NCBI RefSeq assembly: GCF_048403405.1
Contig: NZ_CP183135.1
Length of the DNA stretch: 64,000 nucleotides
Origin: Escherichia coli
Lineage (GTDB): Bacteria > Pseudomonadota > Gammaproteobacteria > Enterobacterales > Enterobacteriaceae
Reading direction: 5' to 3' (one strand)
Shown: piece after piece, positions 33,001 through 39,000 of the stretch
Layout: each line of letters begins with the position of its first letter
Position numbering within the stretch: the stretch's first letter is position 1
Position numbers: made by a program

Positions 33001-36000
33001 AAGGGATTATCATTCAGCACATGTTGTACCTGTTCTCCCAGTCCGTTGAAGGATTTACGCATATCGGTAACGCCGGCAACGAGCCAGATACGGGTACCTG
33101 ATGGGAGTGAGATCATCTTCCCCTCCCGGTCAGTTCACGAATCAATACAGTGAGCAGCTCTGGTGAAGGATTTTCCAGCGTCATGTTACCGTGACGGAAC
33201 TCCACCTTGCAGGAGCTGGCACTGACAGTAGTCTGAGTGGATAAGGACGGAGTAAGAGCAGCCATCGGTTCTTTCGGCTCATCAGGCGTTATCTCTACAG
33301 GTAATAATTCAACGCCTGCGTCAGAAGTGGTTGTCACCGGAATACGCCGTGATATACGCCCTTCGTTTTGCCAGAGTCTGAGCCATTTGAAAATAACATT
33401 ATCATTGACGCCATTTTCTCGTGCAATCTGGGCCACACAAGCACCGGGTTGTGATGCCAGTTCAACCATACGAATTTTGAATTCATTCGAATACTTTTTA
33501 CGAGGTTCTTTTCGTCAGTCCTGTAATTCCATACTTAGATGTCCGTCTGTGTCAGATGGGCGTCTAAGGGTAATGACTCCAACTTATTGATAGTGTTTTA
33601 TGTTCAGATAATGCCCGATGACTTTGTCATGCAGCTCCACCGATTTTGAAAACGACAGCGACTTCCGTCCCAGCCGTGCCAGGTGCTGCCTCAGATTCAG
33701 GTTATGCCGCTCAATTCGCTGCGTATATCGCTTGCTGATTACGTGCAGCTTTCCCTTCAGGCGGGATTCATACAGCGGCCAGCCATCCGTCATCCATATC
33801 ACCACGTCAAAGGGTGACAGCAGGCTCATAAGACGCCCCAGCGTCGCCATAGTGCGTTCACCGAATACATGCGCAACAACCGTCTTCCGGAGACTGTCAT
33901 ACGCGTAAAACAGCCAGCGCTGGCGCGATTTAGCCCCGACATAGCCCCACTGTTCGTCCATTTCCGCGCAGACGATGACGTCACTGCCCGGCTGTATGCG
34001 CGAGGTTACCGACTGCGGCCTGAGTTTTTTAAGTGACGTAAAATCGTGTTGAGGCCAACGCCCATAATGCGGGCAGTTGCCCGGCATCCAACGCCATTCA
34101 TGGCCATATCAATGATTTTCTGGTGCGTACCGGGTTGAGAAGCGGTGTAAGTGAACTGCAGTTGCCATGTTTTACGGCAGTGAGAGCAGAGATAGCGCTG
34201 ATGTCCGGCGGTGCTTTTGTCGTTACGCACCACCCCGTCAGTAGCTGAACAGGAGGGACAGCTGATAGAAACAGAAGCCACTGGAGCACCTCAAAAACAC
34301 CATCATACACTAAATCAGTAAGTTGGCAGCATCACCTATTGCAGCGTTACTTATCCGGATTATCCTCAGAAGTGTAAATCAGCATTCTCCTTTGCTGATG
34401 CAATTGCATGCGGCAGGTATACGGACCGGTGATGCAGAGCGAATACTGTCCAGCGGTGAATGCTGGCAACGTCAGAAGACGCTGCTGACAGGAAGGGAAG
34501 TCAGTTTTATGAAAGGACTGTTCAGAATTGTGGATATGAAGCGGTGGTATCTGTGTCCGCAGGTACGGGTCGCGGATATCGTCCAGCTGAACGGGAATAT
34601 CCGGCCACGATCACGCCAGTGGTGGCAGTTATTCAGGATGGTGTCTCAGTGGCATGTTGATGTGGTTATCGTTGAGCGGCGTTCGTTCAGTATTGTTGCA
34701 GCAGTAGAGCTGGATGATGCCAGTCATTTACGACCGGAACGCAGACGCCGGGATATTCTTCTGGAAGAGGTTCTGAGGCAGGCTGGTATTCCGTTGCTCA
34801 GAAGCCACGATGCCAGAAAACTGCTGCAGATGACCGGAGAATGGCTGAATACAACAGGGGCTGATCAGCAGTCCCCGGAACATCGTAGCTGACGCCTTCG
34901 CGTTGCTCAGTTGTCCAACCCCGGAAACGGGAAAAAGCAAGTTTTCCCCGCTCCCGGCGTTTCCATAACTGAAAACCATACTATTTCACAGTTTAAATCA
35001 CATTAAAGGGCTGCGTTTGGGAAACGTACAATATTGTACGGTTGCGTTATCGCGCTCGGGTGTACTCCCGTGCTATACGGCGTTTTCAGAGGATTTGACC
35101 TCAATCGGATAACCTAAATGCAATACTGCAATGGCGATAACTTAAAAGGGATAGACGTTGACGCAAAATCAATCTGTTATGCATATCTATTGGTTAAATA
35201 ATGCGCTTAACGTTCAAAATTTTTCGATCTCCAGACTGCCCCCGTTCAGCTCGCATAGGAATTATGGGAGAGGATTTTGGCTGAACCGGACAGATATAAA
35301 CCCGTTACTTTTTATACCTTACAGATATGGTTCTTTTGACGTAATTCTTACCAATTTCATAGTCCGGGTTCCATGTCGCCAGATTATGGACACCGATTGC
35401 GGCAGCACTCACAGCTCCCAGAAGTGCTGTTGGTGACCATAGGGAGCCTGCCACCGCAGTGCTTCTGTATTCGGTGTATACGCGGCAGGTTAATTTCTTC
35501 TGCTGATGTTCAATCACATACTCCACTATTTTGACGGTTTCACTGATGTCGTTAACATTCGTGATATCAAAACTTTTGCGGTAAAAAATCAGGTCGTGTA
35601 GTTTCTGTTTGGTCAAAAATTCTGCGTTGAACGACTCAATCTGTACCGTTTCTGACATCCGTTGTTCCTCTCTTTCTTGGAGTCTGTGAATTTCCCTAGG
35701 CACGCGCCTTACGGTCAAACGTTGCACTTTTTCAGGGGCAGTGTATGTCAGAAAAGAATATATTGACTTGTATAAACGATCAATAATAAGAAATTGATCG
35801 TCTTAACTGTAAGCGTAAACCGACTGCCGTATGTGGGGGCGGTTTGGAGATCGGACATTTTTGTACTATAAGGGCTTCCCCGAACAGTCAACGTCGGTAT
35901 TTATGGTTTGTGTCTGCACTACAGTTAAAAATAAAGGGGAGAGACTGCGGTACTATAAACGGCCATAATGAATCGCTATCGATTCGGACCCTGATGAAAG

Positions 36001-39000
36001 ACGCGCGTGAGGCTCTTGTTCGTTAAGCGGATACGTATATCCTGTACAATAATCAGATATACCTCACGGGGTCTAACCCTTTATCATCAACGAGTTGCAG
36101 ATCAGATGGTCATACGGTTTCTTCCTGCTTTAGCTTGCTGAATACAGCCTGAAATCATCACCGTAATGCAATGATGCCCAGCACAGCCTTGCATTTTTGG
36201 CGGCGATGGCCACAACAGCGCGCCAGTATCCTCTGCGTTCGACCAGTGAACAGACCCAACGACTGAATAAGTCAGTCCTTTTCTCAGCGCCAATCAGTAC
36301 TGAACGAGCCCCCTGTACCAGAAGCGTTCGCAGATACGAATCACCGGCTTTTGTTATCCTGCCTAACTTCGACTTTCCGCCGCTACTGTATTGCGATGGA
36401 GTCAACCCCAGCCAGGCCGCCAGTTGCCGTCCATTTTTAAAATCATGTGCATTACCGATACAGGCAACCAGAGCACAGGCAGTTGTGGGACCAACTCCTT
36501 TTAGCTTCATCAGCCGCTGACTGCGGTGATCTGTTTTGGCTATGCGGGACAAAATTCGGTCATATTCAGTGATGTTAGCTTCAATGCGATCAACGTGTTC
36601 CAGTAAATCATCTACACATTGCTGAACCTGAAGAGGTAAAGAGCTCTTCTGCGCAGAAACCATGTGCCGCAAAGCATCTGTACTTTGTGGGGCAATGACG
36701 CCGAATTCTGATATCAACCCTCGAAGACGATTATATGTTGCTGTTTTCTCTTCGATAAAACCCTGTCGGTTACGATGCAGACACTGCATCGCCTGCTGGC
36801 TCTCGTCCTTAACTGGAACAAACCGCATATGTGGGCGACGAACCGCTTCGCAGATAGCCTGAGCATCAGCTGCATCATTTTTCCCTGATTTACCGGCCAT
36901 GCGGTATGGAGATACAAATTTAGCGGCCATCAGACGCGGCTCATGACCATATTGCAGAAACAATCTTGCCCAGTAATAAGCCCCGGAGCACGCCTCCATC
37001 CCGATAACACAGGGCGGTAAACTTGCAATCAGCCCGGGAAGAGCTGCGCGGGTTACTCTGGATTTCACCAGAACGGTTTTGCCATTTTGGTCAACCCCAT
37101 GAACAGCGAACACATTTTTAGCAAGATCGATACCGATAGTAGTGATGGTCATAACGAATCTCTCCAGGCTATGTTTACCCCATGATTGCACAAGAGTTAA
37201 TCAGGTGCATATCCAGGGGAAGTCCCTTCCATTCGTTAGGGGCATTTTTTAACCGATACTGATAAGTAACTGATTGATTCATCGTGATCAGCTATCGCCT
37301 TTAAGTTATTGCTTTTCTCTTATCGCATTTAGGTTATCTCATGTCCCTAAAGGTCTGCCAAACACCGTATAGCGTCCGAGCGCGATAACGCAACCGTACA
37401 ATATTGTACGTTTCCCAAACGCAGCCCTTAAACGACAGTAATCCCCGTTGATTTGTGCGCCAACACAGATCTTCGTCACAATTCTCAAGTCGCTGATTTC
37501 AAAAAACTGTAGTATTCTCTGCGAAACGATCCCTGTTTGAGTATTGAGGAGGCGAGATGTCGCAGACAGAAAATGCAGTGACTTCCTCATCTGGTGCAAA
37601 ACGAGCATACAGAAAGGGTAAACCTTTGAGTGAAGCAGAACGACAGAGAGCAGCTTCTGCGCGCAAACGATCTGTATGTAAAGAGATCAAGGTTTTCGTC
37701 AGACCAGAACTGAAAAACTGCCTTACCAGTCTGTGTGCAGAGGAAGGGGTAACTCAGGCAGAGTTGATAGAAAGGCTTATCGAGAAAGAGGCCTGTCACC
37801 GGAACATGATGTGATGGGGTCACATTCTTGCTAGTTTTTTCTGTCAGTGCTAGATTACTGATCGTTTAAGGAATTTTGTGGCTGGCCACGCCGTAAGGTG
37901 GCAGGGAACTGGTTCTGATGTGGATTTACAGGAGCCAGAAAAGCAAAAACCCCGATAACCTTCACCAGGTTTGGCGACTAAGAGAAGATTACCGGGGCCC
38001 ACTTAAACCGTATAGCCAACAATTCAGCTATGCGGGGAGTATAGTTATATGCCCGGAAAAGTTCAAGACTTCTTTCTGTGCTCACTCCTTCTGCGCATTG
38101 TAAGCGCAGGATGGTGTGACTGATCTTCAACAAACGTATTACCGCCAGGTAAAGAACCCGAATCCGGTGTTTACACCCCGTGAAGGTGCAGGAACGCTGA
38201 AGTTCTGCGAAAAACTGATGGAAAAGGCGGTGGGCTTCACCTCCCGTTTTGATTTCGCTATTCATGTGGCGCATGCCCGTTCGAAGGGACTGCGTCGGCG
38301 CATGCCACCGGTGCTGCGTCGACGGGCTATTGATGCGCTGCTGCAGGGGCTGTGTTTCCACTATGACCCGCTGGCCAACCGTGTCCAGTGCTCCATCACC
38401 ACGCTGGCCATTGAGTGCGGGCTGGCGACAGAGTCCGGTGCAGGAAAACTCTCCATCACCCGTGCCACCCGGGCTCTGACGTTCCTGTCAGAGCTGGGAC
38501 TGATTACCTACCAGACGGAATATGACCCGCTTATCGGGTGCTACATTCCGACCGATATCACGTTCACATCTGCACTGTTTGCTGCCCTCGATGTATCAGA
38601 GGAGGCAGTGGCCGCCGCGCGCCGCAGCCGTGTGGAATGGGAAAACAGACAGCGCAAAAAGCAGGGGCTGGATACCCTGGGTATGGATGAACTGATAGCG
38701 AAAGCCTGGCGTTTTGTCCGTGAGCGTTTCCGCAGTTACCAGACAGAGCTTAAGTCCCGGGGAATAAAGCGTGCCCGTGCGCGTCGTGATGCGAACAGGG
38801 AACGTCAGGATATCGTCACCCTGGTGAAACGGCAGCTGACGCGTGAAATCTCGGAAGGGCGCTTCTCTGCCAGTCGTGAGGCGGTAAAACGTGAAGTGGA
38901 GCGTCGTGTGAAGGAGCGCATGATTCTGTCACGTAACCGCAATTACAGCCGGCTGGCCACCGCTTCCCCCTGAAAGTGATCTCCTCAGAATAATCCGGCC

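Follow-up and report, generated by a model that had tools for sequence, protein, structure and literature searches.

A probable composite of two Tn3-derived miniature elements, with a nested insertion sequence, upstream of copB in an Escherichia coli IncFII replicon

Why should a pair of long, perfect inverted repeats stand directly beside the replication control genes of an IncFII plasmid replicon? The window analysed here, a stretch of 64,000 nucleotides from Escherichia coli (RefSeq assembly GCF_048403405.1, contig NZ_CP183135.1), raises this question at positions 35008–37427, upstream of copB/repA2. Positions 35008–35059 are the exact reverse complement of 37376–37427 (52 of 52 nucleotides), and each copy holds a perfect 16-bp palindrome, CGTACAATATTGTACG, at 35025–35040 and 37395–37410; chance origin of a perfect inverted repeat of 52 nt is impossible in 64 kb. 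Repeat finding reports the pair as 57 nt at 98%, because the 5-bp TTAAA on each side is nearly self-complementary. Enclosed are a small open reading frame (ORF) of 117 aa and an IS110-family transposase gene, and the flanks are replicon-upstream sequence, of which an uninterrupted paralogous copy, AAATCACATTAAACGG, lies at ~24455–24470. All of this agrees with an earlier, sequence-only reading of the window, which also kept the long repeats apart from the IS110-family element, rightly, as that insertion sequence (IS) has ends of its own (Table 1). It took the whole for an inserted or invertible cassette or for a protein-binding operator pair; insertion has held up, inversion and an operator have not, and the reading had passed over a second, inner pair of 38-bp repeats, the two-armed structure that goes with them and the nesting of the IS inside one inner repeat.

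The segment at 35008–37427 is very probably a non-autonomous composite (TIME-COMP) of two Tn3-derived miniature elements (TIMEs) and a passenger, with a nested IS, inserted by Tn3-type transposition. At a comparison locus (L001) the site is empty and reads …AAATCACATTAAACGACAG… with one TTAAA, and in the window TTAAA stands directly outside both 35008 and 37427; one copy in the empty site and two around the insert therefore identify a 5-bp target-site duplication and insertion by transposition. Megablast of 34900–37550 against plasmids returns many records in which both flanks are contiguous over 226 bp, which is 5 bp shorter than the summed flanks. Among 5,426 complete E. coli genomes the uninterrupted site is present in 1,925 and the insert with the window's left junction in 290, showing that a cassette was indeed inserted and that it is no invariant part of related FII replicons. 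The uninterrupted paralogue in the window belongs to a second, remnant FII-type replicon region at 24455–25596, which has hok/sok in front and copB-like and repA-like sequences 91–97% identical to 37449–38564.

With the IS removed, the unit consists of a left arm of 236 bp, a central segment of 591 bp and a right arm of 225 bp, so that two TIMEs in inverted orientation bound the 591 bp (Table 1). TIMEs and TIME-COMPs are defined by Tn3-type repeats and 5-bp (sometimes 6-bp) direct repeats, with no transposase (PMC13367494). Both arms fall within the miniature size of 50–500 bp, neither has a transposase ORF, and all four of their 38-bp repeats are 28–31/38 identical to repeats of intact Tn3-family transposons; no ORF for TnpA (about 1,000 aa) or TnpR lies between the 52-bp repeats, and the segment is not an autonomous Tn3-family transposon. 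The outer 38 bp of each 52-bp repeat (GGGCTGCGTTTGGGAAACGTACAATATTGTACGGTTGC) are a Tn3-type repeat that is related to the inner repeats and has the palindrome inside it; starting with GGGC and ending with GGTTGC, it is slightly atypical at its inner end. The innermost 14 bp of the 52 align with the first TTATCGC / ATGCRATA-type motif of the tnpA–tnpR region of the transposons discussed below. The inner left repeat starts with GGGG and ends with ACGTTAAG, as Tn3-family repeats typically do, and is 28/38 identical to the repeat of the candidate partner transposon, and the inner right repeat, severed by the IS, resumes as GTTAGG at 37235–37240 and occurs uninterrupted in two other loci (L004 and L007). 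Inward of the 52-bp repeats the inverted similarity goes on for ~190 bases more at ~73–75%. Between the two arms identity is 100% for precisely these outer 52 bp and ~75% further in, and the right arm has a 10-bp deletion directly after the 52 bp.

Table 1. Features of the composite and its insertion site (window positions; the limits of the res-like interiors are approximate)
Feature	Position	Strand	Remarks
Left target-site duplication copy, TTAAA	35003–35007	.	Single TTAAA in the empty site of L001 and many other plasmids
Left arm, TIME type A, MITESen1 relative	35008–35243 (236 bp)	+	38-bp Tn3-type repeat at each end
Outer left 38-bp repeat, GGGCTGCGTTTGGGAAACGTACAATATTGTACGGTTGC	35008–35045	+	31/38 identical to repeats of intact Tn3-family transposons (Kosakonia, Fukatsuia, others)
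Res-like interior, left arm	35047–35170	+	Aligns with tnpA–tnpR intergenic region; common motifs ATAACCTAAATGCRATA / TTATCGC
Inner left 38-bp repeat, uninterrupted	35206–35243	-	Minus-strand reading GGGGGCAGTCTGGAGATCGAAAAATTTTGAACGTTAAG
Central passenger segment, 591 bp	35244–35834	.	One conserved ORF
ORF117 (WP_000005489.1), conserved hypothetical protein, 117 aa	35305–35658	-	Passenger gene
Right arm, inner part: first 32 bp of inner right 38-bp repeat (GGGGGCGGTTTGGAGATCGGACATTTTTGTAC)	35835–35866	+	Severed by the IS
Nested IS, 1,368 bp, IS1111 type, IS1618/ISEc76/IS5708 group	35867–37234	-	Boundary ambiguous by 1 nt (one G)
Putative seekRNA-like region in non-coding DNA of the IS	36005–36069	-	Two guide-like segments, hairpin between, stem CGTGAGG/CCTCACG around
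IS transposase gene, 340 aa, DEDD type	36130–37152	-	NF033542 'IS110 family RNA-guided transposase'
Right arm, outer part	37235–37427	-	With 35835–35866 a TIME of type B (225 bp) in the opposite orientation to the left arm
Res-like interior, right arm	37278–37388	-	80–86% identity over ~50 bp to tnpA–tnpR regions
Outer right 38-bp repeat	37390–37427	-	Same sequence as the left one; contains the palindrome
Right target-site duplication copy, TTAAA	37428–37432	.	129 bp upstream of the copB/repA2 start codon (37557)

Whether each arm is an element in its own right bears on the best of the alternatives. A deletion derivative of one larger Tn3-family transposon with ~240-bp terminal inverted repeats, its tnpA and tnpR lost, would likewise present arms that are inverted copies with identical outer ends, interiors derived from the tnpA–tnpR intergenic region of autonomous transposons and a passenger known only inside this composite. 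Each arm, however, has a second, inward 38-bp repeat with its outer end, GGGG, turned towards the passenger, which makes the arm a complete repeat-bounded element; an arm also occurs alone, as a 235-bp element (L007, CP057985.1) that is 93% identical to the right arm and flanked by its own 5-bp direct repeat, TTATT; MITESen1, to which the left arm is closely related, moves independently; and the two arms, at 75% identity, come from different sequence lineages. We consider origin from a single transposon improbable.

The possibility that the arms are MITESen1 itself was considered and rejected. The left arm is ~85% identical to it over the inner 186 bp and 77% overall, and the right arm 65% (the last two over aligned columns), with one terminal repeat replaced and ~20 bp missing, so the arms are relatives of MITESen1 and not isoforms. 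Some 2,400 plasmid records, from many Enterobacterales, contain arm-like sequences. A 6.1-kb plasmid of E. marmotae (NZ_CP056162.1, 3001–3235) has a TIME of the left-arm type, 87% identical, which adjoins PAAR, S-type pyocin and DUF6392 genes and has a degenerate inner repeat and no visible duplication. In an uncultured Enterobacterales metagenome-assembled genome (L018, 1196–1452) there is a ~250-bp TIME of the arm family with both repeats of the GTTTGGGAAACGAACAATATTGTACG type, and several contigs of that genome end in the autonomous-type repeat.

The composite is also known without the IS. Its passenger segment is present in 250 plasmid records, 249 of them at at least 99% identity: 247 have the whole unit with FII flanks and one is a small plasmid with an IS-less composite, and the passenger is therefore essentially confined to this composite. 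The small plasmid (L004, 4.5 kb, ColE1-like) carries a 1,050-bp version, 98% identical, at a different location; it alone lacks the IS, which is present in every composite copy at the FII site.

Where do the arms come from? Scanning one genome per species for the repeat core, we found 25 loci in Enterobacterales, in several of which the repeat GGGCTCCGTTTGGGAAACGGAAAATATTGTACGTTAAG directly adjoins an intact Tn3-family transposase gene (NF033527, 1124 bits), namely in Kosakonia (L036), Ca. Fukatsuia (L027–L029), Izhakiella (L024), Tatumella (L026), Erwinia (L034) and Pantoea (L040). This repeat is 31/38 identical to the outer repeat of the window and 34/38 to that of the solo element, and TnpA of these loci is ~75% identical to TnpA of the frmRAB transposon of Klebsiella (NZ_CP021545.1). 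In Kosakonia quasisacchari (L036, 2012–9832) a transposon of 7.8 kb is complete: both repeats are in place, tnpA is accompanied by a divergently oriented gene for a serine recombinase, and there is a 5-bp duplication. TnpA of this candidate parent group is 30% identical to that of Tn3 and 35% to that of Tn5403. Tn3-family elements with divergent tnpA and tnpR hold res in the intergenic region between these genes. The tnpA–tnpR region of the candidate parents can be aligned with the interior of either arm, and likewise with that of the solo element or of MITESen1, at 80–86% over ~50 bp (E 1e-8 to 1e-11; the right arm matches L036, L009, L026, L028 and L029), similarity is weaker along most of the ~110 bp of that region, and the aligned stretch has repeated TTATCGC / ATGCRATA motifs. 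Each arm therefore looks like repeat–res–repeat. According to a published survey, MITESen1 is not similar to any well-characterised res site (PMC13367494); the comparison made here is to a different, uncharacterised transposon group, and the alignments suggest that the arm interiors may act as res.

An invertible switch would have the 52-bp repeats as recombination sites, and the cassette beside the copB promoter would be turned round by the IS110-family (Piv-related) recombinase or by a resolvase at the res-like sites. The inverted res-like sequence of the arms would suit such a switch, as would the relationship of IS110/IS1111 transposases to the Piv invertase (PMC11187229). Against such a switch, the inverted junction (built as left flank plus reverse-complemented right-arm interior, with at least 80% coverage counted as a match) occurs in 0 of the 5,426 complete E. 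coli genomes compared with 290 for the observed junction, the IS is bounded by ends of its own and is found in other places where the 52-bp repeats are missing, and no resolvase gene lies in or beside the unit. We regard inversion, and with it an invertible cassette, as very unlikely.

That the repeats are an operator pair for a dimeric regulator, as part of the FII replicon control region, is scarcely credible: 52 perfectly conserved bp with a perfect 16-bp palindrome, 129 bp upstream of copB, would fit, yet the repeats are missing from the majority of FII replicons that share this upstream sequence (the 1,925 genomes, and the window's own second FII-like copy), and in unrelated surroundings the repeat is found at the ends of elements; the homologous sequence in autonomous transposons (CGGAAAATATTGTACG) is not palindromic, and the palindrome lies within the 38-bp transposase-recognition repeat of what are Tn3-family ends. 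A promoter and terminator scan gave nothing above shuffle expectation.

It is just as implausible that the 52-bp repeats are the terminal inverted repeats of a large (2.4-kb) IS110-family element with an accessory gene, for although they bracket the sole transposase gene of the segment, the IS limits are set by copies in four other contexts without arms or ORF, an IS-less composite exists, and the 5-bp duplication and GGG…-type repeats are those of the Tn3 family, whereas IS1111 elements have subterminal repeats and a specific insertion sequence. The IS has subterminal repeats of 12/13 bp, AAGGG(A)CTTCCCC (AAGGGACTTCCCC / GGGGAAGCCCTT), and terminal extensions GAATGG (6) and ATA (3). Its transposase gene is followed by 263 nt of non-coding DNA and encodes a product that matches NF033542 (351 bits against a cut-off of 140, E = 5e-105) and PHROG 2199 (transposase, E = 1e-125). 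Copies 87–99% identical and free of arms or ORF lie in L002, L003, L009 (at both ends of the frm transposon) and L048, the last being IS1618 of the Yersinia pestis plasmid pMT (87% nucleotide identity); in all of these, as in the window, the IS stands at GGGG…TTATTGTAC/GTTA(A/G)G in one orientation relative to the repeat. Hallmarks of IS1111 are 11–13-bp subterminal inverted repeats, extensions of 6–7 bp on the left and 3 bp on the right, and sequence-specific insertion (PMC11187229). These features, with the sequence- and orientation-specific position, place the element in the IS1111 family within IS110. It is a secondary insertion and lies inside the inner 38-bp repeat of the right arm. In the ISfinder matrix IS1618 groups with IS5708, ISEc76, ISSm1, ISCfr26 and ISLad6 and is ~38% identical to IS5075/IS4321; at this identity it represents a separate IS lineage with a like habit of sitting in Tn3-type repeats.

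Two observations on the IS copies stand beside this. L009 (NZ_CP021545.1, 62000–77000) is a Klebsiella Tn3-family transposon with frmR-frmA-fghA (formaldehyde detoxification) that has the same IS type in both terminal repeats, one copy being truncated by Tn3. In the window, 35835–35866 differs from L004 1969–2000 at 6 of 32 bp and the remainder of that arm is ~97% identical; flanks may have been exchanged by recombination between IS copies in different repeats.

How does the IS find so fixed a position? Its insertion is apparently guided by a putative seekRNA encoded downstream of the transposase gene. When sibling repeats that are uninterrupted are used for comparison, ATTATTGTAC (36044–36053, minus strand) is the complement of the 10 nt abutting the insertion point on one side and CGCTTAACG (36021–36029) is identical to 9 nt on the other; the second follows the first after 14 nt with a small hairpin, and both are conserved in seven IS copies. 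The order, with the top-strand complement first, is that reported for IS1111 seekRNAs. A single 10-mer match arises in about 2% of shuffles, and the persuasive part of the case for a guide is that both segments are anchored at the cut site. An exact-match search against the flanks of this interrupted copy gave shorter matches, not above chance, the signal appearing only with the uninterrupted siblings, and an Rfam scan of 34800–37700 at E ≤ 1 returned chance matches only and no bridge or seekRNA family. That such an RNA is produced we infer.

Several results weigh against a composite that was moved by a Tn3-family transposase and then entered by a guided IS. No intact Tn3-family transposase is present in the window, where tblastn with three TnpA queries yields only a truncated fragment, and the exact outer repeat was not found on an autonomous element in the scan of one genome per species, the best match being 31/38. 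The IS-less composite of the small plasmid has a degenerate right end and no duplication, so that only one clean composite transposition event is documented. At ~75% identity the arms represent two TIME lineages, unlike the two copies of one TIME in published TIME-COMPs, and the perfect identity of just their outer 52 bp is left without explanation by the model; gene conversion between inverted ends, selection for matched ends and recombinant origin are all possible. For the guide, RNA covariation is minimal, with one compensatory pair and too little sequence variation for RNAalifold.

Blastn of the 52-bp repeat against plasmids placed none under a Tn3-family transposase among the 60 matches listed. 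The truncated fragment is of Tn3/Tn2 transposase (41952–42506, residues 817–1001, 100% identical) and abuts a copy of IS26 at 42508–43327; a second IS26 lies at 54807–55626. A tblastn match of the C terminus of the frm-transposon TnpA at 37178–37255 proved to be an artefact, as that annotated coding sequence runs into the IS. Tn5403 was considered as a partner and rejected, being absent from the window and having unrelated repeats (21/38), though plasmid p109 (L008), which has an identical backbone, carries it 4 kb downstream. A lone Tn3/Tn21-type terminal repeat is found at 41353–41396 (minus reading GGGCTGCGCTTGGAATTCGGAAAATAAACCAC…), just downstream of pemK and with no partner nearby; in p109, Tn5403 is inserted at its inner edge (41352/41353).

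For the composite, the following course of events would account for the observations. A Tn3-family transposase supplied in trans would act on the two outermost 38-bp repeats, and its most likely source would be the transposon group that has intact members in Kosakonia, Ca. Fukatsuia, Tatumella and others and to which we add the frmRAB transposon of Klebsiella plasmids. Replicative transposition would place the unit in intergenic DNA 129 bp upstream of copB/repA2 of the IncFII replicon, duplicating TTAAA, and the cointegrate would be resolved either by the partner serine recombinase on the res-like arm sequence or by host homologous recombination. Separately, an IS of the IS1618/ISEc76 group entered the inner 38-bp repeat of the right arm, at the one position and in the one orientation that its group uses, and the plasmid lineage then reached ~5% of the complete E. 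coli genomes as well as some Klebsiella. Anatomy, target duplication, empty sites, the mobile lone arm, the IS-less form and the limits and target position of the IS are observed; the identity of the transposase that acted and the timing of the IS relative to transposition are what we infer.

The passenger gene, ORF117, belongs to a family with invariant motifs and no annotation (homolog loci L010–L015 and L042–L047). Its homologs recur in variable regions of integrated elements beside SIR2, WYL/WCX, Abi_C, AlpA and YfjJ-type genes, a neighbourhood typical of defence or counter-defence cargo. A bolder and more doubtful proposal goes further: MITESen1-like TIMEs might have a working res from an unnamed Enterobacterales Tn3 subgroup, with which they form and resolve cointegrates; the IS1618/ISEc76 lineage might have an independently evolved seekRNA aimed at the repeats of that subgroup and fix composites by splitting them; and the 117-aa passenger might be selectable, for example in phage defence or counter-defence, and help the IncF lineage to spread.

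An apparently odd structure beside the replication control of a very common E. coli plasmid family is thus resolved into known parts. Standard annotation overlooks the unit: the labels in the records are 'hypothetical protein' and 'IS110 family transposase', and nothing more. As an element it is neat but unremarkable and belongs to a class that was described recently; it leaves the understanding of how such elements work unchanged and has nothing surprising for a specialist in mobile elements, and it indicates that TIME-COMPs can carry cargo other than resistance genes and consist of two different TIMEs. It also offers two leads beyond the published survey. One is a candidate group of parent transposons, from whose res-like region the interior of MITESen1-type TIMEs may derive; the other is an IS1111 lineage, the second that is apparently aimed at Tn3-type terminal repeats, with in silico seekRNA matches.

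Among known systems the unit is closest to the TIME-COMPs (PMC4133298; Gomi & Yano 2026, PMC13367494), with which it has in common two TIMEs, 38-bp Tn3-type repeats, 5-bp direct repeats and a plasmid location, as well as arms inverted as in the commonest composite, TIME244/tet(A), and a size of just over 1 kb without the IS. It differs in having two TIME lineages that share only the outer 52 bp, a cargo that is not a resistance gene and an IS in one inner repeat; published surveys screened for resistance-gene cargo and would therefore not pick it up. MITESen1 (256 bp, ISfinder; Table S2 of PMC13367494) resembles the left arm in its res-like interior and one terminal repeat and is likewise plasmid-borne in Enterobacterales, whereas the outer 50 bp of the left arm carry a different terminal repeat (GGGCTGCG… versus GGGGTCAG…) and ~20 bp are missing. 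IS101 (209 bp; mobilised and resolved by Tn1000/gamma-delta) and TIME244 have the same order of repeat, res and repeat and apparently arose, like the arms, when an autonomous Tn3-family transposon lost tnpA and tnpR; the parent subgroup is another one, here an unnamed Enterobacterales Tn3-family group, and the res function demonstrated for IS101 is for the arms only suggested by alignment. IS4321/IS5075 in the 38-bp repeats of the Tn21 subgroup (Partridge & Hall 2003, as cited in PMC11187229) offer, in that account, a parallel to the nested IS, in a fixed position and orientation inside the repeat and in the occupation of both ends of one transposon (here L009), although the target here, …TTATTGTAC/GTTAAG, is not the Tn21 repeat and is that of a miniature element. 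Finally, in the integron mobilisation unit (Poirel et al. 2009, as summarised in PMC13367494), inverted 288-bp Tn3-type miniatures mobilise a segment in trans, much as we propose here; according to that summary the unit differs in its Tn21-subgroup origin, its integron/blaGES-5 cargo and its lack of direct repeats in the natural context.

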